Source: Candidatus Sericytochromatia bacterium (GTDB lineage: Bacteria; Cyanobacteriota; Sericytochromatia; UBA7694). Taken from it: a DNA stretch of 36,387 nt. Of this stretch, positions 3,485 through 32,832 are shown piece by piece; position 1 is the stretch's first letter, and every line of letters begins with the position of its first letter. The position numbers and the translations under genes were made by a program. The notes below the pieces were generated by a model. It had not been told where the DNA came from, made no database searches, and worked only from the letters and a program-made list of their open reading frames with translations. The stretch spans positions 137,271 to 173,657 of the forward strand of contig JADMKE010000014.1 in NCBI GenBank assembly GCA_018780035.1, written 5' to 3'.

Positions 3485-4141
3485 TCAACGGGGGGCATGG
3501 TTGTGAATCATGCCCCTCAAAACAGCCAAACCAGGACACCCGGCTTTTTTACAAATTTTTCTCAGATGTGTCTTGACGGTATTGGTACTCAAAAACAATT
3601 CACTAGCAATTTGGGCCTGTTTATACCCTTTACACAGTAGGCGAAAGACCTCTTTTTCACGCTCAGTCAGCGGAACATGCCAGACAATCGGCCTGTAGCC
3701 TTGACGGGCTTTCTGGTGCATATGGTAATAGACAACAGGGTCCCAAAAGATATCCCCCATCAAGATTTTGTCTAAGGCATACTCAAGGGTTTCAACGGTT
3801 CCCCCTTTGACCACATAACCTCGAATCGAGAGATTGGCTGTGTCTCTCCATTCCAGCCAGTCTTCATACCCACTGAATAAGAGAATCAGGGGGGGCTGAA
3901 GCAAGGTTTGGACAAATTCAGCCACTGCCATGCCATTCATATCCGGCAAATTTAAATCCAAGATCAGCAAATCGGGTGTTGGTTGATTTTGCAACAGGTC
4001 AATCGCCATCCGTCCCGACTGTACCCGGTTTAAAATCTGAAATTCATAGGGCAAAAAACAATTCTGAGTCAACCAAGCTTCTAAAAAGTCCAGCGTGATC
4101 GCATCATCGTCTACCAACAGCACAGTTACGACAGCAGCCAT
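3485..4141 (-). CDS. Two-component response regulator of the NarL/FixJ (LuxR helix-turn-helix) family.
   Basis: The receiver domain reads 'VLLVDDDAITLDFLEAWL...LLILDLNLPDMNGMAVAEF'. The C-terminal LuxR helix-turn-helix reads 'LTEREKEVFRLLCKGYKQAQIASELFLSTNTVKTHLRKICKKAG'. ATG 4141 (MAAVVTVLLVDDD) has AGGA upstream. The track ORF extends to a GTG at 4171. No cognate kinase is adjacent. Confidence 0.85.
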   Translation of the reverse strand: MAAVVTVLLVDDDAITLDFLEAWLTQNCFLPYEFQILNRVQSGRMAIDLLQNQPTPDLLILDLNLPDMNGMAVAEFVQTLLQPPLILLFSGYEDWLEWRDTANLSIRGYVVKGGTVETLEYALDKILMGDIFWDPVVYYHMHQKARQGYRPIVWHVPLTEREKEVFRLLCKGYKQAQIASELFLSTNTVKTHLRKICKKAGCPGLAVLRGMIHNHAPR

Positions 4142-4233
4142 CCAGATTGTCCTAGCTTTTCGATTCCACACTCAAATTAAAACATATATTCTTCCCAAGA
4201 TAAAAGCACAGTTCCGTCACACCCGCCCCCCTC

Positions 4234-4256
4234 AAAATCACCCAGTGGGTGATTTT
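4234..4256. promoter_or_regulatory. Perfect 10-3-10 inverted repeat (candidate operator) in the divergent promoter region between the LuxR-type response regulator and the 1071-aa gene.
   Basis: The sequence is aaaatcaccc-agt-gggtgatttt. The arms are exact reverse complements. It lies 72 nt upstream of ATG 4328 and 78 nt upstream of the regulator start. Confidence 0.4.
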
Positions 4257-4327
4257 CAAGCATTGTAAAGATATGTTATGAAAGAGGTATGAATGATAAC
4301 GCTGGGTTGTGATGGAGGATCAGAGGT

Positions 4328-7300
4328 ATGGGTATTCAGTTGAATGGTTCGTACTCCAATGTCGGCAAAGACACGTTACAAACACTGCACAAGGTGGCAC
4401 AAAGTGGCGCAAAAATTGAAGCAGCAGAAGTCGATGAAGTCGAAAAAGCGGCCCGTGCCGATGGGGATTTCAGTGATGGCGAAAAAGCCTTGATTGCAAA
4501 ACTCAGAGAAGGAACCCGCGATAAAAAAGAGATTCAGGATTTTCAATTGGCGGCCTTTGACCCCACGGCCCAAGAGCTGGAATTTGGCAGTTTTAACCTG
4601 GAGATCAATGCCAATCAGGGCCAAAGCAAACCCGTCTATCTTGAACGCCTCGGAGAAGCCATTCGGAGCAATGATTCCGACAGTGATGACACCATTCGCA
4701 AGCTGCTGTCGGATCAAAAGCGTTTTGAACTGGCAGCCAAATTGGCACCGGGTCGGCTGCTCGAAGCTGTGGATATCCTCAAAAGTGGCAATTATTCAGA
4801 CGAAGACCGGGCTAGCGTGGTGAAAATTTTTGCAGCTGTGCCCCCTGCCCAACAGGCAGAGATTCTGAAAAAACTCAACGCAGATGGGGATGATAATACC
4901 CTGCGCGATCTGAGTGAAAACAGCACAGCTTTGGCAGCTGTGGCCCAAGGGGATCCTGCGGTCTTGGACAAAGTCATTGAGACCTTAAAAAGTGGCGTTT
5001 ATTCAAGCGAAGATGCAGCAGCAGTGGCCCGCGTGGTCGCGGCCCAATCAGCTCCTCAGCAGCAGAGTTTTGTCAAAGCAGAAATTCAGCGCAATGACAG
5101 TGACAGTGACGATACCCTGGCCGCGTTGAGTGAAAAGACCCGTGTGCTTGAAAATTTGGATACTCCCACCAAATTGCAAAGCTTACATGTGCTCTATGAT
5201 GGCAATGTCTCTGCAGAAGACAAAGTGGGCATGCGCCACATTTTGGAAGAAATCGGCTTTTTGACGATCTCTGACGACAAAGCCAAAGAAGTCGCCAAAG
5301 CCTTGGAAGGCCTCAGCGATGCACAAAAAACCAAATTGGCCGGTCAATTGGATCAACTCAGTCCAATTCAAAAAGCAGATCTGCTCAAGGTCTTGAATCA
5401 GCTCAATCCTGAACAAATCCAAAACAGCTTAAAGGCCCTGACCGCTCCCAGCAACAAAGACGAATTGGGGAGTTTGGTCAAGCTCTTAAGTGCGAGCCAC
5501 AATAAACCCGAAGAACTTGCTCGCTTTTCTGCTGGTTTTGCGGCCTTGACTGAGCCTGAACAGCAAAGTGCCGCGAAACTCATTCACAGTTTAATGCAAG
5601 CCCCTCCCCCCGCCAGCTTGAGAACAGATATTGCCACAGAATTGAGCAAATTGGGGGCCAGCAGTCCCCGCGTAGGCCAAGTCTTAAATAGTTTGGGGCT
5701 TTACTTACCAGCCACTGAGCCCAAAGCCCCCGGCACAGAAGATGCCTCTTCGCGCTTAAAAACCGTCTATATGGGGCAATACAGAACCGATGACCCCAAT
5801 GCCGACTATACCCGAGACATGTTAAAAGTCGCCCAAACTGAGAATTTTAAAGTGGCAATCCAAGGCTCTTTAACCCATTTTCCCACCCCAATGCCTGCCG
5901 CCACTGTCACGGCCAAAGAAACAGATCTGGCCGCCAAAGGGGAGTTTTCCCGCGCCAATCTGGATGCCACAATCAAAACCCTGGAAGACATGGGCGTGCT
6001 CAGTGGCGCCATGCCTGCCGCAGACAAAGACAAAGAAGCCAAGACCTATTTGGCCAAGGTGGCCCTCTTCAAAGATACCCTGATTGCCGATCTGCAAAGC
6101 AAAGAAGGCATGAGCAAAGCTGATGCCGAGGCCTTGGTCAACAATCCCGATCGGGTCGATATCCGCCTGACGCCTCACGCTGGGTATATCTGGGCCGAAG
6201 ACAATAAATGGGTCAAGGTAGATGGCACCGTAACGACCACCCCGGCGCTGCGGCGTATTCCGGGGATGGCCCCCCCCGCTTTGGACAAAGCTCAGGCCTT
6301 TACCGATGCCAATCTGGGCCAAGCCCCAGGCACCCCCGGTTCGGAGGGCCACCACACAGCCGCCTTGCCCAGCAATGATCCCTACAATTTATTGCCAGAC
6401 AACCCTGCCACCTCATGGCGGGGGGCGGTGACAATACGCGACCAGGAGATCAATGCCAATGAATTGGGACAATCTGTTAATGGCCGCCCTGCGGATGTAA
6501 CGCGCACCTACAACGAAGGTGGCAATATGCTTACCGGGACCAAGCCCAATGGCGAAAGTTATGCGGTGGTGGGCAGAGATGGCTTGTTATTGAGCGCTTT
6601 TCATTTGGAGGACACCTCAGACCCGGTCTTTGATGCTGCCAAGGTCGATGCCAGAATCAAAGCCATGGGCCTCGATCAGCCTTTTGCCTCCTTGCCCAAG
6701 GCCACCCAAGCCGAAATCGACGTCACAATCAAGCGCTTAAAAGCAGCCGGAGAAACCTTTCCCGATCTGGCTGCAGAAAGAAAACGGGCCACTGAATTTT
6801 TGGCCAAAATTGATCTAACAAAAGATCTCTTTGCCCAAGATATTGGGGTCGATCGCAAGAATTTGACATTTGTCGCCCAACCAGACTTTCATATAGATAT
6901 GCACATGCGCCCCCTGGGACCGGGGCAAATGATGATCAACGATTTTGACGCCAATCTGAAGCTCTTAACCGAGGCAAAAAAGAAAGCCACCCCTGGCTCC
7001 TGGGAAGACAAAGAACTGGATAGCATGATAGATCATGCAAAAAAAATGAAAGCGGTGCTGGGCCCGGTGATGGATCAGATTGCCCAAGAGTTAAAAGACA
7101 GTGGCCTCGAAGTCATTCGGGCCCCAGGCGTGATGGAAGCCCAAATGGCCCAAGCGCCGGTCGAAAAAGATTCGGATGTGGGTACCTTTTTGGGCTTGGC
7201 AGCAGACAAAACCTATGACCAAGCCACGCTCAAAGCAGAATTGATGGCCAAAGGAATCACCGATCCCGTTTTGGCAGAGGTTCTGACCCAAACCTTTAAG

Positions 7301-7543
7301 CGTCACGTCAATTTTATGAATGCCGTTCCTGGCACCAGCAATGGCAGCAACAAACAGTTTTATATGACCAACGCCACCAGTTTGCCTTCCCTGACAGCGG
7401 CTTATGAGGACTATCTCAAACAGACACACGGTATAGAAACCGTGTATTGGCTCGGCGGAGATGGTGGTGGCCCCAGCAGCAGAAGCGCTTCGGAACAATC
7501 ATTGGATGCCAGTGGCGGACTGGACTGCCGGGAGAACCATTGA
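4328..7543 (+). CDS. Large (1071 aa) multidomain protein. It has an N-terminal acidic helical-repeat region and a C-terminal domain (about 370 aa) of the guanidino-group-modifying-enzyme fold (arginine deiminase / DDAH / peptidylarginine deiminase / amidinotransferase-like). It is a putative arginine- or guanidino-modifying effector.
   Basis: ATG 4328 has GGAGG 9 nt upstream. The N-terminal 600 aa contain recurring motifs: 'R(S/N)NDSDSDDT' appears twice and 'LKSG.YS.ED...V' appears three times. No signal peptide is present. The C-terminal domain carries the ordered hallmark motifs of the fold: 'TYNEGGNMLTG' (EGG[D/N], nt about 6514-6525), 'DFHIDMHM' (H-x-D, nt 6890-6898) and the C-terminal 'SGGLDCRENH' (GGxxC catalytic Cys, nt 7524-7526). 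The stop TGA overlaps the next ATG (TGATG). Confidence 0.8.
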   Translation: MGIQLNGSYSNVGKDTLQTLHKVAQSGAKIEAAEVDEVEKAARADGDFSDGEKALIAKLREGTRDKKEIQDFQLAAFDPTAQELEFGSFNLEINANQGQSKPVYLERLGEAIRSNDSDSDDTIRKLLSDQKRFELAAKLAPGRLLEAVDILKSGNYSDEDRASVVKIFAAVPPAQQAEILKKLNADGDDNTLRDLSENSTALAAVAQGDPAVLDKVIETLKSGVYSSEDAAAVARVVAAQSAPQQQSFVKAEIQRNDSDSDDTLAALSEKTRVLENLDTPTKLQSLHVLYDGNVSAEDKVGMRHILEEIGFLTISDDKAKEVAKALEGLSDAQKTKLAGQLDQLSPIQKADLLKVLNQLNPEQIQNSLKALTAPSNKDELGSLVKLLSASHNKPEELARFSAGFAALTEPEQQSAAKLIHSLMQAPPPASLRTDIATELSKLGASSPRVGQVLNSLGLYLPATEPKAPGTEDASSRLKTVYMGQYRTDDPNADYTRDMLKVAQTENFKVAIQGSLTHFPTPMPAATVTAKETDLAAKGEFSRANLDATIKTLEDMGVLSGAMPAADKDKEAKTYLAKVALFKDTLIADLQSKEGMSKADAEALVNNPDRVDIRLTPHAGYIWAEDNKWVKVDGTVTTTPALRRIPGMAPPALDKAQAFTDANLGQAPGTPGSEGHHTAALPSNDPYNLLPDNPATSWRGAVTIRDQEINANELGQSVNGRPADVTRTYNEGGNMLTGTKPNGESYAVVGRDGLLLSAFHLEDTSDPVFDAAKVDARIKAMGLDQPFASLPKATQAEIDVTIKRLKAAGETFPDLAAERKRATEFLAKIDLTKDLFAQDIGVDRKNLTFVAQPDFHIDMHMRPLGPGQMMINDFDANLKLLTEAKKKATPGSWEDKELDSMIDHAKKMKAVLGPVMDQIAQELKDSGLEVIRAPGVMEAQMAQAPVEKDSDVGTFLGLAADKTYDQATLKAELMAKGITDPVLAEVLTQTFKRHVNFMNAVPGTSNGSNKQFYMTNATSLPSLTAAYEDYLKQTHGIETVYWLGGDGGGPSSRSASEQSLDASGGLDCRENH

Positions 7544-8127
7544 TGAGAAAAATAGTGATTTTGTCGCTTTTATTGGCAGGCTGCTTTGCCAAAACACCCA
7601 CAGAGGAGAAAGCCATGATCCAGAATCCCCCCGATTTAAAGCAATACCAAAACATGCTTCACAGCATGCGACAGGCCAATCAACATGGGCATTTGACTGT
7701 CCCACAAATCAAACAGGCCATCCATCTGGCCCAAGGATTTAAAGGCCAAGAACAAACGTTGGCACTGGATATCCTCAAGCAAACAGTCAGTACCCACGGG
7801 ACCAAAGAGGCAAAATCTTTTTACAGCCTCAATCCAGAATTGAATCTGGTGGATGTCTTTTCAGCTGTTCATATCGACTCAATTCCCGAATCCCTCTTGC
7901 AATTGCTCAATCCCGACATGCCCGGATTGAGTTTAGACAGATTCAGACAATTGCCTGCAAAAGACCAAACTCAGCTCTTGGAATTTGCCCGCACAGCACA
8001 AAACTATTACCTTGAGAAAGCCGAGTCGATGCGCTCTGCCGTCAATCCTATCTCTGCAAAGGCAGAGACCATTGGGATGTTTTTGCTGCAGGCCCAAACT
8101 GAAGTTCAAATTTCTGAAAACAATTAA
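7543..8127 (+). CDS. Small alpha-helical lipoprotein (194 aa) translationally coupled to the 1071-aa gene. It is a possible immunity, chaperone or partner protein.
   Basis: ATG 7543 overlaps the upstream TGA stop, and GGAGA lies 7 nt upstream. The lipoprotein signal is 'MRKIVILSLLLAGC' with a lipobox Cys. The track's longer ORF (7447) has an implausible Trp/Arg-rich N-terminus lying inside the upstream gene. Confidence 0.7.
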   Translation: MRKIVILSLLLAGCFAKTPTEEKAMIQNPPDLKQYQNMLHSMRQANQHGHLTVPQIKQAIHLAQGFKGQEQTLALDILKQTVSTHGTKEAKSFYSLNPELNLVDVFSAVHIDSIPESLLQLLNPDMPGLSLDRFRQLPAKDQTQLLEFARTAQNYYLEKAESMRSAVNPISAKAETIGMFLLQAQTEVQISENN

Positions 8128-8128
8128 G

Positions 8129-10060
8129 CTACCAGGTTCTGAGGAAGCGCTTGTTGAGTTCCAGTTTGCTGAACTTGAGCAGAATCGGGCGGCCATGGGG
8201 ACAGGTATAGGGATTGCGGGTTTTGGACCAATTTTGGACTATCTTTTGCATCTGTTCGAGAGTTAAAGGGTCGCCAGCCCGAATCGCACTGTGACAGGCA
8301 ATGGTCTTGCAGAGCCGGTTAAACGACTCCAGATAGACTTTGGCCACGCCACTTTCGCGCAACTCTAACAAAACCTCTTTAAAGGTTGCTTCGGTCTCAG
8401 CAAAACGCAGACAGTGGGGAATGGCACGAATCGCAATACTGCCAGGCCCCTCCTCTTCCCATTCAAAGCCTGCACGTTCAAAGGCTTTGCGATTTTCTTC
8501 GAGCAGGCCGCGCTCAATTTCATCGATCTCAATCACGACCGAGAGCAGCAGCGGCTGGCTGAGAATTTTGGCCTGTTCAAGCAATTCTTCGTAGAGATAG
8601 CGCTCTTCGGCCACGTGTTGATCGAGCAGGGCCAGCCCATTGCCATAATGGGCCACAATATACGTATAATCACAGGCCTGGCCCAGGGCGCTGACGGGCT
8701 CCAGCGGCGCACCAGCTTCAACCGGCGCTGGCGGAGGGGTGATTTTGAGATCGGGCAATTCCAGCACTTGCGGGGGACGTGTTGGCAACTCCGGAGCCCA
8801 ACTGGGGCCTGCAGGCTGGACGGGCACTGGTGCAGGAGCAAGGGGAGAGGCGTAAACTGGCGCGGCAGGTTCCTGAACGGAAGGCTGAACAACAGGAAGC
8901 GGCATGGCAAAAGGAGGAATTTCATCGTCATCATCAAAAGCATTGCCAGCAGAGGCTTTGACAGGATTCATAGCACTGGCTGCGGTGGACACAGTTGGCA
9001 CAGTTAACGGGGTGGGCTCAGCCGCTCCAGAATCCACCACCGGCGGCCCCAAACTGGCGCTGCGCTCAAAATTGTAACGTGAAAGGGAGTTTTGAATGCC
9101 CTCGCGGGTCAATTGAAAAATCTGGCTGAAATGTTTGAACTTGACCTCTTTTTTATTGGGGTGCACGTTCACATCGACATTGCCAGCCGGCAGTTCCAAT
9201 TGCAGAATCGCCACGGGGAAATTCTTTTTGGGTACCAGATCGGCGTAGAGATCATCGACAAGCTTGGTAATGCCCGGCACCTTGACCCAGCGCCGATTGA
9301 CAAACAAAAATTGGTAATTGCGGTCGCGGCGCACACAATCGGGATAACTCAGAACCCCTTGGACCAAACCGGCTGGGGTTTCGTGGCTGACGGTATAGAG
9401 CGAATCAGCCAGGTCTTTGCCCAAAATTTGCCTCACCACCGAACTCAGGCTCTGCTGGCCGCTGGTCTGAATCACTGTTTTGCCTTTTTTGACAAATTTA
9501 AAGCCAATCTCGGGCAAGCCCAGGGCAAAAGCCTGCATCAATTGCTGGATATACCCCAATTCGGTGGTCTCAGAGCTGAGAAATTTGAGCCGGGCAGGGG
9601 TATTGTAAAAGAGATCGCGAATCGTCAGACTCGTTCCCACTGGCCCGCCAGCGGAGCTGTTTTCGATGATTTCACCGCCCTGGATCACCAGGCGTTTGGC
9701 AATGTCTTGATCGGCGGTACGGGTTAAGATTTCAACCCGCGCCACCGAGGCAATACTGGGCAAAGCCTCACCGCGAAAGCCCATGGTATTGATGCTCCAA
9801 ATATCTTCAAAGCTCTGCAATTTGCTCGTGGCAAAACGCTGAAAGGCCAATCCGACACTTTCTGCAGGAATGCCAAAGCCATTGTCGACGACCCGCAAAA
9901 AGCGTCCGCCCTGATCCACTTCGACCTGAATAAAGGTCGCACCGGCATCAAGGGCATTTTCAACCAATTCTTTGATCACCGATGCGGGCCGCTCAACCAC
10001 TTCACCCGCGGCAATTTGGTTGGCAACCTGGGCATCGAGCAGCTGAATCGGCTTCATCAT
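8129..10060 (-). CDS. mutL: DNA mismatch repair protein MutL.
   Basis: The N-terminal GHKL ATPase motifs read 'QVANQIAAGEVVERPASVIKELVENALDAG' and 'VVDNGFGI'. A Pro/Ala-rich linker is followed by the C-terminal dimerisation/endonuclease region 'ACHSAIRAGDPL'. The ATG overlaps the htrA stop (ATGA). Confidence 0.95.
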   Translation of the reverse strand: MMKPIQLLDAQVANQIAAGEVVERPASVIKELVENALDAGATFIQVEVDQGGRFLRVVDNGFGIPAESVGLAFQRFATSKLQSFEDIWSINTMGFRGEALPSIASVARVEILTRTADQDIAKRLVIQGGEIIENSSAGGPVGTSLTIRDLFYNTPARLKFLSSETTELGYIQQLMQAFALGLPEIGFKFVKKGKTVIQTSGQQSLSSVVRQILGKDLADSLYTVSHETPAGLVQGVLSYPDCVRRDRNYQFLFVNRRWVKVPGITKLVDDLYADLVPKKNFPVAILQLELPAGNVDVNVHPNKKEVKFKHFSQIFQLTREGIQNSLSRYNFERSASLGPPVVDSGAAEPTPLTVPTVSTAASAMNPVKASAGNAFDDDDEIPPFAMPLPVVQPSVQEPAAPVYASPLAPAPVPVQPAGPSWAPELPTRPPQVLELPDLKITPPPAPVEAGAPLEPVSALGQACDYTYIVAHYGNGLALLDQHVAEERYLYEELLEQAKILSQPLLLSVVIEIDEIERGLLEENRKAFERAGFEWEEEGPGSIAIRAIPHCLRFAETEATFKEVLLELRESGVAKVYLESFNRLCKTIACHSAIRAGDPLTLEQMQKIVQNWSKTRNPYTCPHGRPILLKFSKLELNKRFLRTW

Positions 10061-11268: not shown

Positions 11269-12065
11269 GGTTTCCTCGTTTCGTTGGGCATGGCCCAACC
11301 CAAATTATCGTCTTGGAGATAGGTCAGGGCTTTTAAGGGTTTTTCAGCCAATTGCTCAAAATAGCTCTGCAAGCAAGCTTGCAATTGCCGCATAGCCTGG
11401 GGTTTCAGCTCGGGCAAGCTCTGCGGGGGCCCCTCAGAGGCCTGTAACCCCCGCAGAACTTCGACCTGTTCAAAGCTCAGATAGCGGCAGGTCTCTTTGC
11501 GTTTGCACGCTTCACAGCGCAAGCCGCCGTGTAAGGTATCAAAAAAGTGGTAATCGCGGGGGCGAAAGTCAATTTCACATTGGGCACAAAAATCCCAGTC
11601 CTGCTGATAGCCCAATTGCTCCAGATAATGCAATTCAAACCAGAGCAAAAGTGGCAGGGCTTCAGTCCCAGCGGAAAGCGCCTCTAAACCGTGTAAAAAC
11701 AGCGCAAAGAGATATTCATTGGGATCTTCTTCTTGGGAGAAAGAGGCGATCAACTCACCCATGGCAAGCGCATGGGTCAAGGCATGGTAATCGCGGTTCA
11801 GACCCGAAAAAGAGCGCAGGGCATCACATTGGGTGATTTTATGCAGGTTGCGTCCCCGCTCCAAGACCAGATGGTTGCAGCGCAACAGGTCCAAACGACC
11901 CGCAAGCTTGCTGCGGGGCCGACGCACACCCTTGGCAATGGAGCGCAAAACACCAAATTTGCGGCTGTAGAGCACCACAATTCGGTCGTGCTCGTTATAG
12001 TCGTAGTGCTTGAGGACAAAGGCCTCTACTTCAAACGGATGCCGGTTGGGCGGCAAGTTCGACAT
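11265..12065 (-). CDS. recO: DNA repair protein RecO.
   Basis: The N-terminal OB-fold reads 'EAFVLKHYDYNEHDRIVVLYSRKFG'. The C-terminal zinc-finger reads 'CAQCEIDFRPRDYHFFDTLHGGLRCEAC'. ATG 12065 is used; the track uses TTG 12074. The stop overlaps the htrA start. Confidence 0.9.
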   Translation of the reverse strand: MSNLPPNRHPFEVEAFVLKHYDYNEHDRIVVLYSRKFGVLRSIAKGVRRPRSKLAGRLDLLRCNHLVLERGRNLHKITQCDALRSFSGLNRDYHALTHALAMGELIASFSQEEDPNEYLFALFLHGLEALSAGTEALPLLLWFELHYLEQLGYQQDWDFCAQCEIDFRPRDYHFFDTLHGGLRCEACKRKETCRYLSFEQVEVLRGLQASEGPPQSLPELKPQAMRQLQACLQSYFEQLAEKPLKALTYLQDDNLGWAMPNETRKP

Positions 12066-12318
12066 GGTCGACAATACCTACAATCACACAGCGAATGGGG
12101 GCGTTTTCATAATGCAGGATCTGACGGGAGGAAGTGCCTTCTTCGAGCAACAACACCCGATCTCCCACACCGGCCTGAACCTGATCGATGGCGATCACCT
12201 GCTCTCCGGTGTCTTCTCCATAGGGATCGATCGGCTGGACCATGAGCAACTTGCGTCCTTGCAGGGCCTCATGTTTGATCGTGGCAACCACGCTACCAAT
12301 GACTCGTGCCAGTCTCAT
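12031..12318 (-). CDS. EutN/CcmL/PduN-family bacterial-microcompartment vertex (pentamer) protein. It is an orphan with no shell hexamer genes nearby.
   Basis: The 95-aa protein MRLARVIGSVVATIKHEALQGRKLLMVQPI...VQAGVGDRVLLLEEGTSSRQ...PIRCVIVGIVDHVEL aligns by eye along its length with E. coli EutN / cyanobacterial CcmL. A perfect AAGGAG SD lies 7 nt upstream of ATG 12318. Its 3' end overlaps recO by 35 nt. Confidence 0.8.
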   Translation of the reverse strand: MRLARVIGSVVATIKHEALQGRKLLMVQPIDPYGEDTGEQVIAIDQVQAGVGDRVLLLEEGTSSRQILHYENAPIRCVIVGIVDHVELAAQPASV

Positions 12319-12489: not shown

Positions 12490-13857
12490 CTATTTACGTG
12501 TGTAAGCTTTGAGGAAATTGCCCCAACCTTTGGTCTCAGCGAACAGGAGCACGCTGGGATTGTCATAAACTTGTTTGTAGCTCATGGTGGAGGTGGGGAA
12601 ATAAATCACAGCGCCGGTGGCGTTGGGATTCATGCGGTCAAAGCCATTGGCAATCACAGCTTTTTTATAAGCGTTCATGACATCAGCGGCACCGCGGCTG
12701 CGGGTGGCACCAGCGTAGAGTTGCAGGAAGTGACCGAAGTCAGCTGCATCGCGGTTATAGAACATTTGGGTTTTGCTGCGAGCGGCATCAATGGCAGCTT
12801 TGTTGGCAGGCAAACCAGCGGTCAGCTCAGCACCAAAGGCATTGATGGCGGCAGTCAGTTCGCCAGTAACGACATTCACATCGGTTGCAGCCAAGGTGAT
12901 GTCATTGCCGCGTTGTACGCCGGTGGCATAGGATTTGATATAGCTATCAACCATGTGTTTGCCGAGTTGAGCAGCATCCCAACCAGAGTTCTGGGCCAGA
13001 CCGCCAACATAAGAGCGGTATTCCCAACCGTCGCCGGGTTCGAGCTCTTCAGAAGCGACCAAGACTTTGGCCAAGCCTTTGACTTGATAAGCGGTTTCGA
13101 GGTAGCTCATCAGGCAGGTATCGAAGCCCATGATGTCCACGGGGCCACCGATATTGCGGGCGGCAGCAGCCAGAGCGGGATTCAGGTCAGCCATTTTCAT
13201 TTCGCCACCATTGTCATCGGAGCCGAAATTGCGGGAGCCATCAGCAAAGCGGCTCTGAATGCCATTCATGGCACCAATCTGAGTCGGAACAAACATTTCA
13301 AAAGTAGAGGCTTCACCACCGCGACGAACGGCACCACCACCGTGATTCCAGATGGAGATGGAGTTTTTCTGAGCGGGGAAGGTTTTGGTGACCCAATCTG
13401 TGAAAGCAGCGAAGACTTTGCCGTCGCCGGAGTCGATTTCACTGCCAGCTTTGGCAATCGGGTTGTCGATCGGTTTGGAAACGAGGGTGCTGTTTAAACC
13501 AGCGGGGTCAGCTTGCATACGGTAGACAGCAGAGTCACCCTGTTTGGCACCGTCGAAAAGCACAATCACTTCGATGTCGTTGGCTGCGGCGCCAGCGTCA
13601 TTCAGACCGGCTTCAATTTCGTTCAAGTCTTTCAGACCTGCGGTGTAGAGGTTGTTGTCTGCAGCCATGTGGATGGCAACCAGCCATTTTTTGCCATTGC
13701 GGGCGCGGCTGAGAGCGTTAACCTGGGTGCGATTATTTAATGCATTAAGCGCAGCGCCCTGGGGGCCTGTCAGTCCAACGGGACCGCAAGCAGCCATAGT
13801 ACCGACGGCAGAAGCCAGTGCGGCGAGAGCGGAAGCTTTTTTGAGAACCTGATTCAT
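12490..13857 (-). CDS. Clostripain-family (peptidase C11) cysteine protease lipoprotein.
   Basis: The lipoprotein signal is 'ALAALASAVGTMAAC'. C11 hallmarks are present: 'WLVAIHMAADNNL', the His motif 'SIWNHGGG' and the Cys motif 'MGFDTCLMSYLE'. ATG is at 13857. Confidence 0.85.
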   Translation of the reverse strand: MNQVLKKASALAALASAVGTMAACGPVGLTGPQGAALNALNNRTQVNALSRARNGKKWLVAIHMAADNNLYTAGLKDLNEIEAGLNDAGAAANDIEVIVLFDGAKQGDSAVYRMQADPAGLNSTLVSKPIDNPIAKAGSEIDSGDGKVFAAFTDWVTKTFPAQKNSISIWNHGGGAVRRGGEASTFEMFVPTQIGAMNGIQSRFADGSRNFGSDDNGGEMKMADLNPALAAAARNIGGPVDIMGFDTCLMSYLETAYQVKGLAKVLVASEELEPGDGWEYRSYVGGLAQNSGWDAAQLGKHMVDSYIKSYATGVQRGNDITLAATDVNVVTGELTAAINAFGAELTAGLPANKAAIDAARSKTQMFYNRDAADFGHFLQLYAGATRSRGAADVMNAYKKAVIANGFDRMNPNATGAVIYFPTSTMSYKQVYDNPSVLLFAETKGWGNFLKAYTRK

Positions 13858-17343: not shown

Positions 17344-18222
17344 ATGAAAAAAATTGGTGTGATTACCTGCAAAGATTATCCCGACTTTCAAAAAGACGAA
17401 CAATTGCTGAGCTTGGCGCTGCCTGCCGTGGGCCTCGAAGCCGAACCCGTGATTTGGGAAAACGCGGCCCAAGGCCAACACGATCTGAGTCCCTACTCAC
17501 TTTTGGTCTTTCGCTCCTGCTGGAATTACCACTACCACCAGGCCGCTTTTGATGCTTGGCTGAACGATTTAGAAGTGCAGGCCTTACCCGTTTGGAACCC
17601 CGTTTCACTCGTGCGCTGGAACTTGAATAAACGCTATCTGCTGCAATTGCAGGCCGCCGGAATCACAATTGTCCCCACCCACTTTAGCGAACCGAGTGAG
17701 TTGGATTGGGTCTCCCAGGCCCAGGCCCAAAACTGGCAAGACTATGTGATCAAGCCGATTGTCTCGGCCTGGGGGGCCAATACCTACCGGGTTAGCCGCG
17801 AAGAACTGCCGGGCTTGGAAGCAAAAATACGCCCTCAGGCCCAAACCGTGGGCCTGATGTTGCAGCCTTTTGTGCCCCAAATTGCAGAAGGCGAGTGGTC
17901 TTTGGTCTATTATAAAACCCCAGAAGGGCAGCGTTTTAGCCACGCCTTTGTGAAACGGCCCGCATTGGGGGCCTTTCTCAGCCACGAAGAATTTGGTGCC
18001 AGCTGGGCCCCTGCCGAAGCGGCCCCTTTCATGTTTGAAACCGCCGAACAGGCCCTCAGCATTTTGCCTGGCGATTGGCTCTATGCGCGCATCGATGGGG
18101 TGGTGGTCGGACAGCAATTTTGGATCATGGAGCTGGAGGTCTTTGAACCCAGCCTCTATTTGGCCGCCGATCCAGGTGCCCCAGGCCGCTTGGCCCAGGC
18201 CTTGGCAACCCGTTTGGCTTAG
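17344..18222 (+). CDS. Hypothetical protein, possibly an ATP-grasp fold enzyme (RimK/glutathione-synthetase-like).
   Basis: ATG is at 17344. The order and spacing of motifs suggests ATP-grasp: '[17 protein letters not shown]', '[18 protein letters not shown]', 'GEWSLVYY', '[14 protein letters not shown]'. This was not verified. It lies 14 bp upstream of ybaK. Confidence 0.5.
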
Positions 18223-18236
18223 CGCGAGCTCTGACC

Positions 18237-18713
18237 ATGGCTTCACCCAAAACCAACGCAGCAAGGATTCTCGACCAACTCGGAATCGCCTACGATTTGC
18301 TCAGTTACGCCGTCGATGAAAGCGATTTAAGCGCCCCCGCTGTGGCCCAGAAAATTGGGATCGAAGCGGCCCAGACCTTTAAAACCCTGGTGGGCAAAGG
18401 CGACAAAACCGGGGTGATCATGGCCTGCCTGCCGGGCGATGCCGAACTCAACCTCAAGGCCCTGGCTGCTGCCAGCGGCAATAAACGGGTCGAACTGGTG
18501 GCCCTCAAAGAGATTCAGCCCTTGACCGGGTATATCCGGGGCGGGGTCTCACCGCTCGGGGCGAAAAAGGCCTATCCGGTTTTGATTGATGAGCTGGCGC
18601 AGGTATTTGATCGCATTGCCGTCAGTGCCGGACAGCGCGGCCTGCAGCTCTTTTTGCAGCCGGAAGATCTTCGCAGGGCCTGCCACGGCGTCTGGGCGGC
18701 CCTGAGCCAATAG
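18237..18713 (+). CDS. ybaK: Cys-tRNA(Pro)/Cys-tRNA(Cys) deacylase YbaK.
   Basis: The 158-aa protein contains '[16 protein letters not shown]...[22 protein letters not shown]...[11 protein letters not shown]', a strong match to YbaK/EbsC. Confidence 0.85.
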
Positions 18714-19721
18714 GGCATTGCTGAGTCTGAGCAAGCTGCGCAGGCCCCGGCTGGCCCAATCGGGGCGGGTTGTGAGCAGCGTCTCGCGGCGCAGGGCCCC
18801 GAGCCAGTCGGCAGGCGTGAGCGCGTGGTGCATGCCATCGAGGGAAAAAATTTGAATTTCACTCACCCCGGCCTGCCGGGCCGCTTCGCAGTCTGCGGCC
18901 AATTCAGCGGGATCGTGGTACCCCGACTCACTCAATTTGCCCACGGTGCCCACCACGCCCAAAGCCGCCTGCAAGGGCTGTTGAAAGCATTTTCGCGCGT
19001 CTTCAAAATAGCCTTTGACAAAGTGCGGTGAGAGCGAAAAACCAAGCAAATCGCGAAAGCTGCTGCGGTAGGTCATCAGTGAAAGGGCATCCCAATTGAC
19101 CCCTGTGACGGGCAATTGCAAAAGTTCCTGAAAACAGGTATTGCCCGCTTGGGCATCTTCGACCACCAGGGGATAGGTCACGGCCCAGGCCTGGGTACCA
19201 CGCTGGTGCAATTCGTGAATCAGGCGATTAAAGACCTCCCGCGCGGCAGCCAATTTGAGGGCCCGCTGGCTTTGGCGCAAATGGGCCCAGAGCGCAGGCA
19301 AGTGGCGCTGCAATAAGAGCTGACGCAGATGTAAACTGTCAGCCAAAGAGGGTTCTAGATCTGCAATCAAAACTGGCAGGGGCAATTTTTCGGCATCGAT
19401 CCAGTCCATCAAACGGTGGGCCGTCTGAGCAAAGATCTCAGCATTGCCAGCATGGGGCCAATAGCCCTGGGCATCAGGCAAGAGCAGCCAGGCCCGCACG
19501 GGCACCTCCAGCAGCGCGGCTTGGAGCAAGAGAGCCCGCAATTCAGGGCTGGCGATTTGGCTTGAAGGAATCGCCAAATTGAGGGCCAGTGCGTGTTTGC
19601 GCAAAAGAGGCAGATCACCGGCCACCCAATGATAGGGCATGAATTCGGCCCAGAGGGCATACGCAGGGTTCATCTGGTCTTGTGCCTTTAATTTGCCTTT
19701 AAACAGGGTGATCTTTTGCAT
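18549..19721 (-). CDS. Hypothetical protein (390 aa). Its 3' end overlaps ybaK convergently by 165 nt.
   Basis: It is a long ORF with an ATG start and no recognisable motifs. Codon usage matches the neighbours. The overlap with ybaK suggests either a genuine convergent overlap or an extended 3' end. Confidence 0.5.
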
Positions 19722-21121: not shown

Positions 21122-23539
21122 ATGCCAGAAAGTACAGATCACGATTGGTTGGAAGCCCAAACAGCCTGGGAAGCCGGCCTGTTCGACAAAGCCCGGCTCA
21201 AGCTCGAAAAGAGACTCAATCGCCATCCCCAAGATACATCCACACTTGCCTTATTGGGTCAGGTTGCTCAGGCCCAGCACCACTGGAAAGAGGCCCGTCG
21301 CCACTTTGAACAGGCCCACGAACTGGCCCCCGCAAACCCAGAATATACCCACTTATTGGCCCAGTGGTTTGTCGCTCGCCAAGGTTTCCCAGAGGCCGAA
21401 GCCCTTTATGCCGCTTTTTTGACCGCTTACCCAGCCCATCCTTCCCTGCGGGTCGAATACGCCGCGCTATTGGGGGCCAGAGGAGCCCTCAACGAGGCAG
21501 AAACCCAACTCAAAACCTGTTTGGCCGACTTTCCCGATCAGCTCGATGCCTGGCTGCTCTACGGCAATCTGGCAGCGGCCATGGGCCAATTCAAGACCGC
21601 TGAAAACGCCTACCAAGAAATTATCTCCCGCCAGCCAAAATTGCCCGAGGTCTATCGCCGCAGGGGTCAACTCGCGCTGATGCAAGGCCTCCCAGAACAG
21701 GCCTTGCCCCAGTTTGAACAGGCCCTGGAACTGGATCGTGACGATGCCGAAAGCTGGAGCAATCTCGGCGCCGTCAAGCTGATGATGGCCCAAACCCCAG
21801 CGGAACGGGGTGAGGCGATCCGGGCCTGCATGCAGGGCCTGCTGCGCGACAACCGCAACCCGCAGATTCTCGCCAATATTGGCCTGGGCTTTTTCCAAAT
21901 GGAACTTTATCCCGAAACCCTCTTTTATCTTGATCAGGCGCGCAGCCTTGATCCGCAATTGCAGATCGGGGATTTTGAATTGGGGATGTCTCTGCTCAAA
22001 ATCGGCAAAGCCGGTCACGCTTTGGAATATTTGCAAAACTGCCAGACCGCCGCAGAAGAACCCCCCGAAAATCTGGCCCAGGTGGCCGCTTGGCTGGGGT
22101 ATATCCGGGCCCAACAGGGGGATCTGGTTCAGGCCCAAAAAGACTATTTGGCCCTGGAGACCTGCGATCCCCACCAAGGCGGAAAATGGCTAGCGGCATC
22201 GCTCTTGCCGCCGGTGGCGGCCTCAGAATCGGCCTGGCAAGACTATGCCTTGCATTACCGCCGGGCCCTGGCCAAATTGCAGCAGGCCCCAGCATTTAAA
22301 CTCAAACAGATGCCCGTGGACATGCCTGGCCTGTTTTGGGCCTACCAGAGCGACAATGTCAGACCCGAGCAAGAAATCCAAGCCCAGCTCTGGCAACGAG
22401 CCCTACAAGACAGGCTGTGCAGCACAAAACACAAGACACGTCCCCAAGCCCCCTGGCGGATTGGGCTGGTCTCACGCTATTTTCACAATCACTCGGTAAT
22501 GGGGGTTTTCGCCCGCCTGATTCAGGCCTTGAGCCAAGAACCCAGCTTTGAAGTCGAATTGTTTATGCTCGGCCCCAGTGGCGAAGATGCCACCACCGCC
22601 TTTTTGAGCCGCCTGTCGCTCAAGCGGCATTTCCTCGGTGGCCAAGACTTAGATCAGATCAACAAAGCGATTCTCAGCCGCGAGTTGGATGTCTTGCTCT
22701 ACCCGGAGTTGGGCATGGACCCGTTGACCTTTGCCCTGGCCTGTTCGCGCCTGGCCCCTTACCAAGCCGTCTTATCTGGGCACCCGGTCACAACAGGCCT
22801 CAACACCATCGACAGCTATCTTTCCAGCCGCTGGCTTGAACCGGCTGAAAATGCCCAGGCCGCTTATAGCGAAAAGTTAATCTGTCTGGACGAATTACTG
22901 CCGGATTTTCCCTTTCCCACTCTGCCCAGCCAAAACAAAAGCCGCTCTGAACTGGGCCTGAAGCAGAAACGCGTTTATCTCTGCCCGATGATGTTATTTA
23001 AGCTGCACCCGGCCATGGATGCCGTCTTTGCTGAAATTTTGGCCCGCGACCGCGAAGGGGAGATTGTCTTTTTTCAATACCCACCTTATTCGTTGCACGA
23101 CGGCCTGGAAAAAGCCCTGATCAAACGCTGGGCCCGCAGCATTCCCCAGGCCAAACGCCTGCGTTTTTTGCCCTGGGCCTCGCGCGAAGACCTGCTGCGC
23201 CTGATTCAACACGCCGATGTGGTGCTCGACAGTTTTCCCTTTGGCGGCGGCAATACCAGCTATTTGACCCTGGCAATGGGCACACCGCTCGTGACCCTGG
23301 CTGCACCTTATTTACGCGGGCGCAGCAGCACAGGCATGTATCTGCGCATGGGTCTGCCTGAACTGCCCGCCCAGAGCCCCACTGAATATGTCGAAAAGGC
23401 CCTGAAATGGGCCAACGAACCACAGGCCCGTGCAGAGGTCAAAGCCCTGATCGAAGCCCAACGCGGCGTGCTCTTTGACAACCCAGCCGGGTCGCAGGCT
23501 TTGATTAATTTTTTGAAGAACTCCCTGGCAAGTCTTTAA
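21122..23539 (+). CDS. TPR-repeat protein fused to an O-GlcNAc-transferase-type (GT41, SPINDLY-like) glycosyltransferase domain.
   Basis: The N-terminal 400 aa hold multiple TPR repeats. The C-terminal half contains 'RIGLVSRYFHNHSVMGVF...LDVLLYPELGMDPLTFALACSRLAPYQAVLSGHPVTTGL...KLHPAMDAVFAEIL', characteristic of the GT41 catalytic domain. It lies 9 bp after gloB. Confidence 0.85.
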   Translation: MPESTDHDWLEAQTAWEAGLFDKARLKLEKRLNRHPQDTSTLALLGQVAQAQHHWKEARRHFEQAHELAPANPEYTHLLAQWFVARQGFPEAEALYAAFLTAYPAHPSLRVEYAALLGARGALNEAETQLKTCLADFPDQLDAWLLYGNLAAAMGQFKTAENAYQEIISRQPKLPEVYRRRGQLALMQGLPEQALPQFEQALELDRDDAESWSNLGAVKLMMAQTPAERGEAIRACMQGLLRDNRNPQILANIGLGFFQMELYPETLFYLDQARSLDPQLQIGDFELGMSLLKIGKAGHALEYLQNCQTAAEEPPENLAQVAAWLGYIRAQQGDLVQAQKDYLALETCDPHQGGKWLAASLLPPVAASESAWQDYALHYRRALAKLQQAPAFKLKQMPVDMPGLFWAYQSDNVRPEQEIQAQLWQRALQDRLCSTKHKTRPQAPWRIGLVSRYFHNHSVMGVFARLIQALSQEPSFEVELFMLGPSGEDATTAFLSRLSLKRHFLGGQDLDQINKAILSRELDVLLYPELGMDPLTFALACSRLAPYQAVLSGHPVTTGLNTIDSYLSSRWLEPAENAQAAYSEKLICLDELLPDFPFPTLPSQNKSRSELGLKQKRVYLCPMMLFKLHPAMDAVFAEILARDREGEIVFFQYPPYSLHDGLEKALIKRWARSIPQAKRLRFLPWASREDLLRLIQHADVVLDSFPFGGGNTSYLTLAMGTPLVTLAAPYLRGRSSTGMYLRMGLPELPAQSPTEYVEKALKWANEPQARAEVKALIEAQRGVLFDNPAGSQALINFLKNSLASL

Positions 23540-24629
23540 AACTTAAAAGTTTCAAACTGAGCTTGGTGCCCTGCCCAACTTTGCTCTGAATCTCAACGCT
23601 GGAGCGCAACAAACGGGCAATTTCGTCGCAGATACGCAAATCCATGCCTTCCAGGAGATCGCTTTCTCCACGCAGCTCTTCCAGGGCTTCGGCCACAAAA
23701 CCAGGACCATTGTCTTCTTGGCTCAACACAGACTCACGGCCTTCTTGGTACAGGCGCAAGGAAAGGGTACTGGCTGGTGGCAAATGCTGTAAGGCAAAGT
23801 GCATCCAACCATGAGACAATTCCCGCAGCAATTGGGGTTCGGCCAATACTTCATGGTCTGGATTGCAGCGCAGGCGGAGTTCAATTTGCCGAGCAGAGCA
23901 GGGCTCCATATACTGGGCCAGGATTTCGTCCAAAATGTCCCTGACATTGACCTTTTGCAGTGCGGGAAAGGGCATGAAGCGGTAATGGGCCTGGCGCAGA
24001 AGCTGATGCAAATGTTTTTGTCCCCGCTTTGCGGCAAAGAGAGCCTCTCTGAGGTATTTTTCAGGCAGACTTGGAATATCTGGCCAGGATTTTTGCAGAT
24101 TTTCCAGCCGCAAATCCATTTGCCCCAGTCCTTCGTTGAGTTCGCAAGAGAGCACCTGAAACATCTCATCTTTGGCTTGGTTAAAGCGTTTGAGTTCGTT
24201 TTCCCGGCTGTGTAAAATCAGGCTATTGCGAACCCGTGCCAAAAATTCCAGTTTATCCACAGGTTTGCGCACAAAATCGACAGCGCCCAATCCCAAGGCC
24301 CGTGACAGGTCATAACTGCGGGTCATGATGCCTGTACAAATGATTACAGGCAAATCCGCAAGCAGGGCATTTTGTTTTAATTGTTGCAGCAGGGTTAAGC
24401 CGTTCATATGGGGCATTTCCCAATCGCTGATCAGCAGATCCAACGGCTCTTGACGGGCAATTTCCAGGGCCAGCAGACCATGATTGGCCCTTAAAATTTC
24501 GAAAGGCCAGCCACTGGCGCGCAAAAATCCCTGCAGGGTTTCCAATGCACTGAGTTCGTCATCGACCAATAAAATTCGGGCCGGGGAACGGGGCCCAAAA
24601 CAGGCTGGCAAAGAATAAGACTCCGTCAT
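23505..24629 (-). CDS. Response-regulator receiver domain fused to a histidine-kinase-like region (dimerisation plus ATPase domains) in which the phospho-acceptor His is replaced by Cys. It is a probable pseudokinase or atypical signalling protein.
   Basis: The receiver reads 'ILLVDDELSALETLQGFL...DLLISDWEMPHMNGLTLL'. The H-box-like region reads 'FQVLSCELNEGL' against the consensus 'SHELRTPL'. The ATPase G1 box 'DNGPGF' and the G2-like 'GQGTKLSL' are present, but the N-box Asn is not evident. ATG 24629 has GGGAG upstream; the track start is TTG 24641. Confidence 0.8.
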   Translation of the reverse strand: MTESYSLPACFGPRSPARILLVDDELSALETLQGFLRASGWPFEILRANHGLLALEIARQEPLDLLISDWEMPHMNGLTLLQQLKQNALLADLPVIICTGIMTRSYDLSRALGLGAVDFVRKPVDKLEFLARVRNSLILHSRENELKRFNQAKDEMFQVLSCELNEGLGQMDLRLENLQKSWPDIPSLPEKYLREALFAAKRGQKHLHQLLRQAHYRFMPFPALQKVNVRDILDEILAQYMEPCSARQIELRLRCNPDHEVLAEPQLLRELSHGWMHFALQHLPPASTLSLRLYQEGRESVLSQEDNGPGFVAEALEELRGESDLLEGMDLRICDEIARLLRSSVEIQSKVGQGTKLSLKLLSFKDLPGSSSKN

Positions 24630-24675
24630 TGACGCTCCCAAATCTATCCAACAGCGTTTAATCTATCCATTTTTA

Positions 24676-26946: not shown

Positions 26947-27077
26947 CGTCATTTCCCCACTCACAGTCCCTGGTGCAGCAAGCGCTCTTGCAGGTGTCTA
27001 GAGCATTTCAGTTTAAACCACCCAGGGCGATTTTGAATACCCTGGGCGGGCTCTGGCATTGTTTCAGAGATAGCCCA

Positions 27078-32809: not shown

Positions 32810-32832
32810 ATAGCTGGGGCTCCTCAAAATAT

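Follow-up and report, generated by a model that had tools for sequence, protein, structure and literature searches.

The DNA examined here is a 36,387-nt window (the whole stretch that was analysed) from contig JADMKE010000014.1 of a Candidatus Sericytochromatia bacterium, the Sericytochromatia being non-photosynthetic relatives of cyanobacteria. It contains a two-gene module composed of a 1071-aa protein with a large C-terminal catalytic domain (hereafter the enzyme) and a 194-aa lipoprotein (hereafter the partner), whose open reading frame (ORF) overlaps the end of the enzyme gene (Table 1). This pair had been proposed from the sequence alone as a candidate arginine-modifying effector module; both ORFs are present, and all the motifs quoted in that original prediction were located in the translation. 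Neither ORF is a product of chance, because both have diverged homologues in other organisms. In the case of the enzyme, a word-indexed protein search with the full-length query returned two relatives only: a 99%-identical metagenomic copy (P0001) and a 1028-aa orthologue (P0002) from a metagenome-assembled genome (MAG) labelled Candidatus Sericytochromatia, with 68% identity in the search and 72% in the MAFFT alignment.

Table 1. Features of the enzyme–lipoprotein module, in window positions.
Feature	Position	Strand	Remarks
Enzyme gene, 1071 aa	4328..7543	+	Stop TGA 7541-7543; single cysteine, C1067; without signal peptide
N-terminal domain, residues 1-105 (~100 aa)	4328..4642	+	Motif ADGxFSxGExxLI
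Three ~70-aa acidic helical repeats, residues ~115-330	4670..5317	+	NDSDSDDT ... LKSGxYSxED
Catalytic domain, residues 470-1071	5735..7540	+	
WAEDN, residues 622-626	6191..6205	+	D625, putative first guanidinium-binding Asp
NEGGN, residues 729-733	6512..6526	+	Putative equivalent of the ADI/DDAH-type EGG(D)
FHIDMHM, residues 854-860	6887..6907	+	H-x-D motif
VNFMN, residues 994-998	7307..7321	+	Putative equivalent of the agmatine deiminase/PPAD active-site Asn
GGLDCRENH, residues 1063-1071	7514..7540	+	Exact C-terminus; C1067 codon 7526-7528
Coupling site	7530..7545	+	GGGAGA 7530-7535, 7 nt, then TGATG; stop and ATG share base 7543
Lipoprotein partner gene, 194 aa	7543..8127	+	Lipobox LLAGC, Cys15 codon 7585-7587
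Partner conserved C-terminal domain, residues ~95-185	7825..8097	+	Includes Arg164, codon 8032-8034

To define the catalytic domain, a structural model of residues 470-1071 was generated with AlphaFold2 (AF2) from a 26-sequence alignment, reaching a mean predicted local distance difference test (pLDDT) score of 93.1 and a predicted template modelling (pTM) score of 0.91. On this model, it is well supported that the last ~600 residues of the protein fold as a pentein, the fold of guanidino-group-modifying enzymes; the anticipated relationship to arginine deiminase (ADI), DDAH and peptidylarginine deiminases (PADs) was borne out, with no unrelated fold emerging. The domain is nevertheless larger than first proposed, covering 600 aa rather than the last 370. 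Its nearest structural branch is that of agmatine deiminase and the Porphyromonas gingivalis peptidylarginine deiminase (PPAD), not ADI/DDAH. Further structural matches were DDAH-1 (17.2), nitroimidazole nitrohydrolase (16.1), ArgZ (16.0) and PADI6 (15.8), followed by amidinotransferases (about 15) and arginine deiminases (12-15), all figures as given by the comparison. The core alignment covers about 300 of the 602 domain residues, and the remainder consists of helical insertions; the orthologue lacks one of these, at residues ~943-990. The predicted catalytic unit is a compact pentein core elaborated by helices.

Conservation of the active-site residues was scored in two alignments, one comprising 44 relatives with 24-51% identity to the window protein and the other comprising 26 sequences. 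The residues W622, E624, D625 and N626 are nearly invariant across relatives, as are E730 and D751; within NEGGN, the 44 relatives keep G732 and N733 without exception and G731 almost without exception. Q851 of the QPDFHID segment is invariant, D857 is invariant in both alignments, and H855 shows full conservation among the 26 sequences and almost full conservation among the 44. N995, N998 and N1015 are likewise invariant in the 26 sequences, where T1014 is nearly invariant. The putative nucleophile, C1067, is the sole cysteine of the protein and lies four residues before its C-terminus; it is invariant in the 26-sequence set and nearly so in the 44-sequence one. The predicted GGxxC cysteine is accordingly real, although its position is 1067 and not 1066, and the Cys/His/acidic hallmarks follow one another in the canonical order.

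The order of the conserved residues (an Asp following a Trp, then (E/D)GG, H-x-D and an Asn, with GG-x-x-C close to the C-terminus) is that expected for the agmatine deiminase/PPAD branch. The characteristic features of the pentein superfamily were found in the domain: the alpha/beta propeller in the model, a cysteine in a GGxxC-type motif near the domain C-terminus, and H-x-D plus a second acidic residue, the latter identified by motif order and not by residue-level superposition. D625, E730, H855, D857, N995/N998 and C1067 would together form the full expected active-site set, their register relative to solved structures being deduced from motif order. The possibility of a pseudoenzyme was rejected because the catalytic residues are invariant, and their retention in canonical order argues for canonical guanidino chemistry.

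At the sequence level, the enzyme had no match in Pfam, NCBIfam, PADLOC or PHROGs, and neither phmmer nor profile searches of PDB sequences returned anything significant. The only echo among PDB sequences was the HID motif of the amidinotransferase SxtG, with a non-significant E-value of 0.56. An hhalign comparison of the enzyme-family profile with E. coli AstB was not significant and out of register. A Pfam scan of 52 relatives of the enzyme (44 + 8) placed no domain over the catalytic region; specifically, PF04371, the agmatine deiminase/PPAD family, gave no match at E <= 1 for the window protein and none at E <= 0.01 for the 52 relatives, and the PDB sequences of agmatine deiminase or PPAD stayed unmatched even with family profiles. 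By sequence test, the catalytic domain lies outside PF04371 and any profile-defined family.

A HMMER search with residues 470-1071 retrieved 510 cluster representatives at E <= 1e-3, including 50 at E <= 1e-30. A tblastn search of plasmids returned nothing. Most members of this catalytic family are 400-800 aa long, and they are distributed patchily across phyla, in Sericytochromatia, Planctomycetota, Myxococcota, Melainabacteria, Vibrio and Zooshikella, with several copies per genome. Across the family, the catalytic domain is constant and the N-terminus is variable: the variants include the ADGxFSxGExxLI N-domain of the window protein, an NDGKID-type region, EF-hand-like DNGDG regions of the Melainabacteria type, and plain Sec-type signal peptides. 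The latter occur in about 7 of 78 full-length representatives, among them proteins of Vibrio sp. S9_S30 and Zooshikella; the catalytic domain can therefore work outside the cytoplasm.

The proteins of Vibrio sp. S9_S30 (L029 4629-6509) and Zooshikella (L026 3879-5762; L027) are stand-alone, Sec-signal relatives of the catalytic domain that end in GGLDC(V/I)T(I/T)H. Their loci lack the partner gene and lie among housekeeping genes, for instance cysS and a hybrid-cluster protein gene. As cultured gammaproteobacteria, these carriers, Zooshikella harenae among them, are the most tractable and make the family testable. Melainabacteria and gut-derived members (P0068-P0149-type; L031-L035) are shorter, at 330-560 aa, many of them carry N-terminal DNGDG segments (EF-hand- or dockerin-like), and they end in GGIDCLTQE-like sequences, which we take to resemble the GGxIHCxTQQ motif of agmatine deiminases. 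These members may bridge the catalytic family to PF04371, although they too have no Pfam match.

The N-terminal part of the window protein is built from a ~100-aa domain and acidic repeats. As predicted, there is no signal peptide: no hydrophobic segment is found at the N-terminus, where the best 12-residue window in the first 45 aa has a Kyte-Doolittle value of 0.02 (measured on the 99%-identical copy). The N-domain is common to at least 11 other members of the enzyme family and, among the relatives aligned, occurs with the pentein catalytic domain only. A profile of this domain produced only noise against the PDB, with nothing significant, and TerB/DUF533-like matches were weak and confined to a few relatives. 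The N-terminal acidic helical repeats had been described as filling the first 600 aa; the duplicated motifs are real (NDSDSDDT at residues 115 and 256, LKSG.YS.ED at residues 151 and 220), but they belong to three repeat units that cover about residues 115-330. These repeats are confined to the window protein and the orthologue P0002 (72% identity). For the MG start, a myristoylation signal of the eukaryotic kind was considered and rejected, since the consensus is not consistently kept.

The partner begins with a classical lipoprotein signal, MRKIVILSLLLAGC, with the lipobox LLAGC and Cys15, which confirms the predicted lipoprotein. A variable linker connects its signal peptide to a conserved helical domain of ~95 aa that is common to 15 lineages. 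The AF2 model of the partner is mostly helical, with a pLDDT of 75.5. The partner matched nothing in Pfam or among PDB sequences, and in PADLOC/PHROGs it gave only a spanin-like signal-peptide match that was not significant (E 0.085). Arg164 (precursor numbering, in MRSAVNP) is among its most conserved polar residues; it is kept in all complete sequences but one and is located in the loop joining the last two helices.

A Sericytochromatia MAG contains an annotated lipoprotein identical to the partner (locus tag IV090_10340), and a 61%-identical homologue with the same lipobox (P0170) is encoded directly after a 1028-aa gene that matches P0002 at 99% identity. There too the two genes overlap by a single base, but the flanking genes on both sides are different. 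The partners are mutually homologous across phyla (pairwise BLASTP E-values of 2e-5 to 7e-19), and a profile built from six of them retrieved further members at 1e-16 to 1e-57, always on the same strand and directly downstream of an enzyme gene. Among lineages with enough downstream sequence to judge, the partner is present in all 15 whose enzyme ends exactly in GGLDCRENH-stop; these comprise Sericytochromatia, Lacipirellulaceae (Planctomycetota) and taxonomically unlabelled metagenomic contigs. The Lacipirellulaceae MAG GCA_051648405.1 is one genome with the module. The small partners form a conserved family of their own with strict linkage to GGLDCRENH enzymes, and the expected co-location of the lipoprotein in homologues therefore held throughout this clade. 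Enzymes with other C-termini (-CRENREEF, longer tails, the Sec-signal gammaproteobacterial and the Melainabacteria types) have no adjoining partner.

In every one of the 15 lineages, the partner start overlaps or abuts the enzyme stop, a strictly conserved translational coupling that takes one of two configurations. In the first, TGATG or TAATG, the stop and start codons share one base; this is the arrangement predicted for the window, where the overlap is preceded by a Shine-Dalgarno sequence (Table 1). In the second, a GTG start lies 13 nt before the enzyme end, and cGTGAAAACCATTAG codes for both -RENH-stop and M-K-T-I-S. This dual-coding overlap of 13-14 nt, cGTGA(A/G)AACCATTAG, in which R-E-N-H-stop is read against M-(K/R)-T-I-S, was seen in L008, L036, L038, L041, L042, L046 and L028, and it may help explain the strict conservation of the last residues of the enzyme in the GGLDCRENH clade.

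A lipobox is present in 13 of the 15 partner lineages; the two others are L037, whose signal peptide lacks the Cys, and L045, whose start codon is ambiguous, the GTG being replaced by GCG (~452) with no canonical start visible. Two loci, L037 (6200-7302) and L050 (7226-8502), carry tandem partner paralogues after one enzyme; they further resemble each other in having an amidohydrolase gene upstream and genes for glycosyltransferases and ArsC downstream. In L013 (1204-5590), two enzyme paralogues stand in a row and are followed by one partner. The partner diverges faster than the enzyme, with 59-61% versus 72-75% identity in the orthologous pair and 24% versus 52% in comparison with Lacipirellulaceae.

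Public gene calls shorten the partner (105 versus about 146-149 aa, 106 versus about 132, and 170 versus 194), as in L008 (8021-8470), L036 (3330-3728) and the L002/L004 partner genes. The lipoprotein signal is lost from these annotations because the GTG, TTG or ATG start of the partner overlaps the end of the enzyme gene. The impression that other family members have unrelated small downstream genes was rejected as partly a gene-caller artefact, overlapping GTG/TTG starts having been missed; placing the true GTG/TTG starts in several loci restored the signal peptide and the lipobox.

The remaining genes of the window are ordinary chromosomal ones, including those for an AraC-type regulator, an NmrA-like protein, mutL, an HtrA-like protease, recO, a C11 peptidase and FTCD, in addition to histidine kinases and large TIG/NHL proteins, and the genes flanking the module are unrelated from locus to locus. 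The divergent gene at 3485-4171 (-) encodes a response regulator with receiver and GerE (LuxR-type) domains, as had been predicted; however, it is not conserved beside the orthologue, which has a large membrane protein upstream instead, and it was rejected as part of the module. In a promoter/terminator scan, the stretch 3900-8400 did not outperform shuffled controls.

A clostripain-like peptidase (Pfam C11) is encoded at 12490-13857 (-), 5 kb from the enzyme gene, and is itself a lipoprotein, MNQVLKKASALAALASAVGTMAACG. Peptidases of family C11 are Arg-specific, and this proximity recalls the gingipain-PPAD pairing of P. gingivalis, although the linkage may be coincidence. Between the module and this peptidase lie mutL, the HtrA-like protease gene, recO and a EutN/CcmL-type gene for a carboxysome/microcompartment vertex protein (~12001-12288 (-), coordinates transferred from L002), which overlaps the recO end; apart from this isolated gene, the window shows none for microcompartments.

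Farther away, a 7TMR-DISM histidine kinase (24676-26964 (-)) adjoins a receiver-HATPase hybrid (23505-24641 (-)); the histidine kinases and the LuxR-type regulator have no evident link to the enzyme–lipoprotein module. The interval 27078-36306 (-) is taken up by three very large ORFs in succession (1132, 783 and 1157 aa). The 1132-aa and 783-aa proteins contain IPT/TIG domains, and the former also contains NHL repeats. This region may be a horizontally acquired cluster of cell-surface proteins; the GC content is 0.41-0.46 over 32-35 kb, compared with about 0.52 elsewhere in the window. A GC spike of 0.614 at 18001-19000 coincides with overlapping ORFs on opposite strands (18237-18713 (+) and 18549-19721 (-)), and the 390-aa ORF at this site has no Pfam match.

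Taken together, the overlap of the enzyme gene with an exported lipoprotein gene in every close relative examined suggests, short of proof, a secreted arginine-modifying toxin encoded with its own inhibitor. The reading we favour, although we hold it tentatively, is that of an extracytoplasmic arginine-deiminating effector and a periplasmic lipoprotein that acts as its inhibitor or immunity protein. It is proposed because a signal-less enzyme is predicted to be made in a fixed ratio with an exported partner, because sister subfamilies carry Sec signals, and because the loci are accessory-like. In this scheme, the enzyme would hydrolyse the guanidino group through a covalent Cys-amidino intermediate, converting arginine to citrulline and ammonia, a chemistry inferred from that of its structural relatives; the likeliest substrate would be the arginine side chain in proteins or peptides. 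As an effector or toxin, the enzyme would have its site of action beyond the cytoplasm of the producer, and the lipoprotein would be the cognate periplasmic inhibitor or immunity protein, produced in a fixed ratio with it. More speculatively, the conserved Arg164, which lies at the tip of the final hairpin of the partner, may mimic the substrate and so block the active site.

Several properties of the module resemble those of effector–immunity systems: a cognate small gene lies directly downstream and is conserved with the enzyme, copies occur in tandem and in multiples per genome, the flanks shift, the spread is patchy, the N-terminus is variable, and divergence is faster in the partner than in the enzyme. 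The effector, toxin and immunity roles are what we infer from these features. A more specific version, in which the pentein is an interbacterial or extracytoplasmic toxin of Sericytochromatia and Planctomycetota that kills or disables its targets by citrullinating envelope-protein arginines and is held in check by the lipoprotein through Arg164 mimicry, is doubtful as a whole, though a serious possibility. A polymorphic toxin in the strict sense was considered and rejected, as the N-domain, in the relatives aligned, co-varies with one and the same catalytic domain.

A number of observations weigh against the effector–immunity reading. No secretion-system genes were found in the 36-kb window, where those of type VI and type I secretion systems (T6SS, T1SS), CdiB and extracellular contractile injection systems (eCIS) were sought, or in the flanks of six other partner-bearing loci (including L008, L036, L037, L050 and L051), and Pfam/NCBIfam scans of the enzyme revealed no trafficking domains such as PAAR, MIX, LXG, RHS or CdiA. 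The N-domain travels with the same catalytic domain in all of its relatives noted above; no other toxin domain fused to it was found, and a metagenome scan with its profile was empty. The Sec-signal Vibrio and Zooshikella versions without a partner are awkward if the enzyme is toxic in the bacterial periplasm, and a periplasmic target carrying guanidino groups is not obvious. Finally, the partner model is of moderate quality and resembles generic helical hairpins only.

The best-surviving alternative is an envelope or extracellular nutrient-scavenging deiminase that releases ammonia from free guanidino compounds (arginine, agmatine or Arg-ending peptides), with the lipoprotein as anchor, docking subunit or regulator. 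That the closest structural relatives are agmatine deiminases fits this explanation, as does the existence of the Sec-exported, partner-less Vibrio and Zooshikella relatives, which suggests that there is no periplasmic self-toxicity; the neighbouring lipoprotein peptidase, with its echo of gingipain and PPAD, may be counted on the same side. We nonetheless consider it somewhat unlikely, since the enzymes accompanied by a partner lack a signal peptide, no genes for transport or catabolism (such as putrescine carbamoyltransferase or carbamate kinase) are linked to them, and a metabolic enzyme would not usually show tandem partner paralogues or shifting contexts.

If the enzyme instead stays in the cytoplasm, for regulatory citrullination or as a small-molecule amidinotransferase or dihydrolase, the lipoprotein would merely be co-transcribed or would provide a link to envelope signalling. 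This seems quite unlikely: co-transcription poorly explains an overlapping-start linkage to an exported protein that takes two configurations and recurs in 15 of 15 lineages across phyla, and the Sec-signal relatives indicate that the domain functions outside the cytoplasm. Less probable again is an effector directed against eukaryotic hosts or prey, either PAD-like or arginine-depleting, with the lipoprotein as a secretion or chaperone factor or as a guard against leakage; neither Sericytochromatia nor Lacipirellulaceae are known to be host-associated, no type III or type IV secretion system (T3SS, T4SS) genes lie nearby, and the MG start fits the myristoylation consensus inconsistently. The use of the pentein scaffold for non-guanidino chemistry, as in 2-nitroimidazole nitrohydrolase, or as a non-catalytic binding module, as in eIF6 and RESC5, is highly improbable given that two Asp, His, Glu, Asn and Cys are all retained in canonical order.

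Arginine deimination is well known in metabolism, in the PADs of vertebrates and in PPAD of P. gingivalis, while no bacterial effector–immunity system that uses it is known to us. Literature searches found no antibacterial effector of the pentein or deiminase type, and a 2012 catalogue of polymorphic toxins mentions no deiminase or pentein toxin domain. A literature search on the secretion systems of Sericytochromatia yielded nothing relevant.

The present analysis defines two families unrecognised by reference libraries, the pentein enzymes (about 510 cluster representatives) and their lipoprotein partners, whose genes are strictly linked in one clade; "unrecognised" refers to Pfam, NCBIfam and PDB sequences for both families, and to PADLOC and PHROGs for the window proteins only. 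Should the toxin–immunity interpretation be correct, it would add citrullination to the known toxic chemistries and supply arginine deiminases with a new natural inhibitor that is a protein; it would also offer a handle on the biology of poorly known lineages such as Sericytochromatia, Melainabacteria and Planctomycetota. A citrullinating pentein toxin would be the first interbacterial or extracytoplasmic toxin family on this fold. Even with the interpretation disproved, the pentein enzymes would represent a new branch, elaborated in structure, of a superfamily that is already well studied.

Among known systems, the effector–immunity pairs of type VI secretion that act in the periplasm (Tse1-Tsi1, Tae-Tai, Tle-Tli) have a matching gene layout: a signal-less enzyme is followed by a small exported partner, often a lipoprotein, the genes overlap, partner copies occur in tandem, several loci are found per genome, and the flanks are variable. 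The window module differs in that no T6SS genes, PAAR, MIX, VgrG or Hcp were found with it; to our knowledge, a pentein catalytic fold has not been described among T6SS effectors. Bacteriocins of the colicin M/pesticin type have the same three-part build, in which a long helical region separates the N-terminal domain from the C-terminal enzyme, and they too combine a toxin without a signal peptide with a periplasm-facing immunity protein. They differ from the window module in that none of the domains are homologous, the module is not accompanied by a gene for lysis or release, and its type of N-domain, in the relatives aligned, always occurs with the same catalytic domain.

Among the deiminases themselves, the PADI enzymes of vertebrates and cyanobacteria represent an unrelated subfamily: the window enzyme has neither PAD_N nor PAD_M, and its structural similarity to them is much below that to the agmatine deiminase/PPAD branch. 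The DDAH, arginine deiminase and amidinotransferase enzymes (PF02274-type; PDB 3i2e, 1s9r, 1jdw) are structurally less similar than this branch as well and have no significant sequence match; they are cytosolic, act on small-molecule substrates and are not accompanied by a partner lipoprotein. The agmatine deiminases and PPAD (PF04371; PDB 1xkn, 3hvm, 2ewo, 5ak7) share 12-13% identity with the catalytic domain in structural alignments, with no similarity at the level of hidden Markov models. Compared with them, the window enzyme adds about 300 residues in the form of helical insertions and a 470-aa N-terminal extension, and it is distinguished by its exact -CRENH C-terminus and its obligatory lipoprotein partner.

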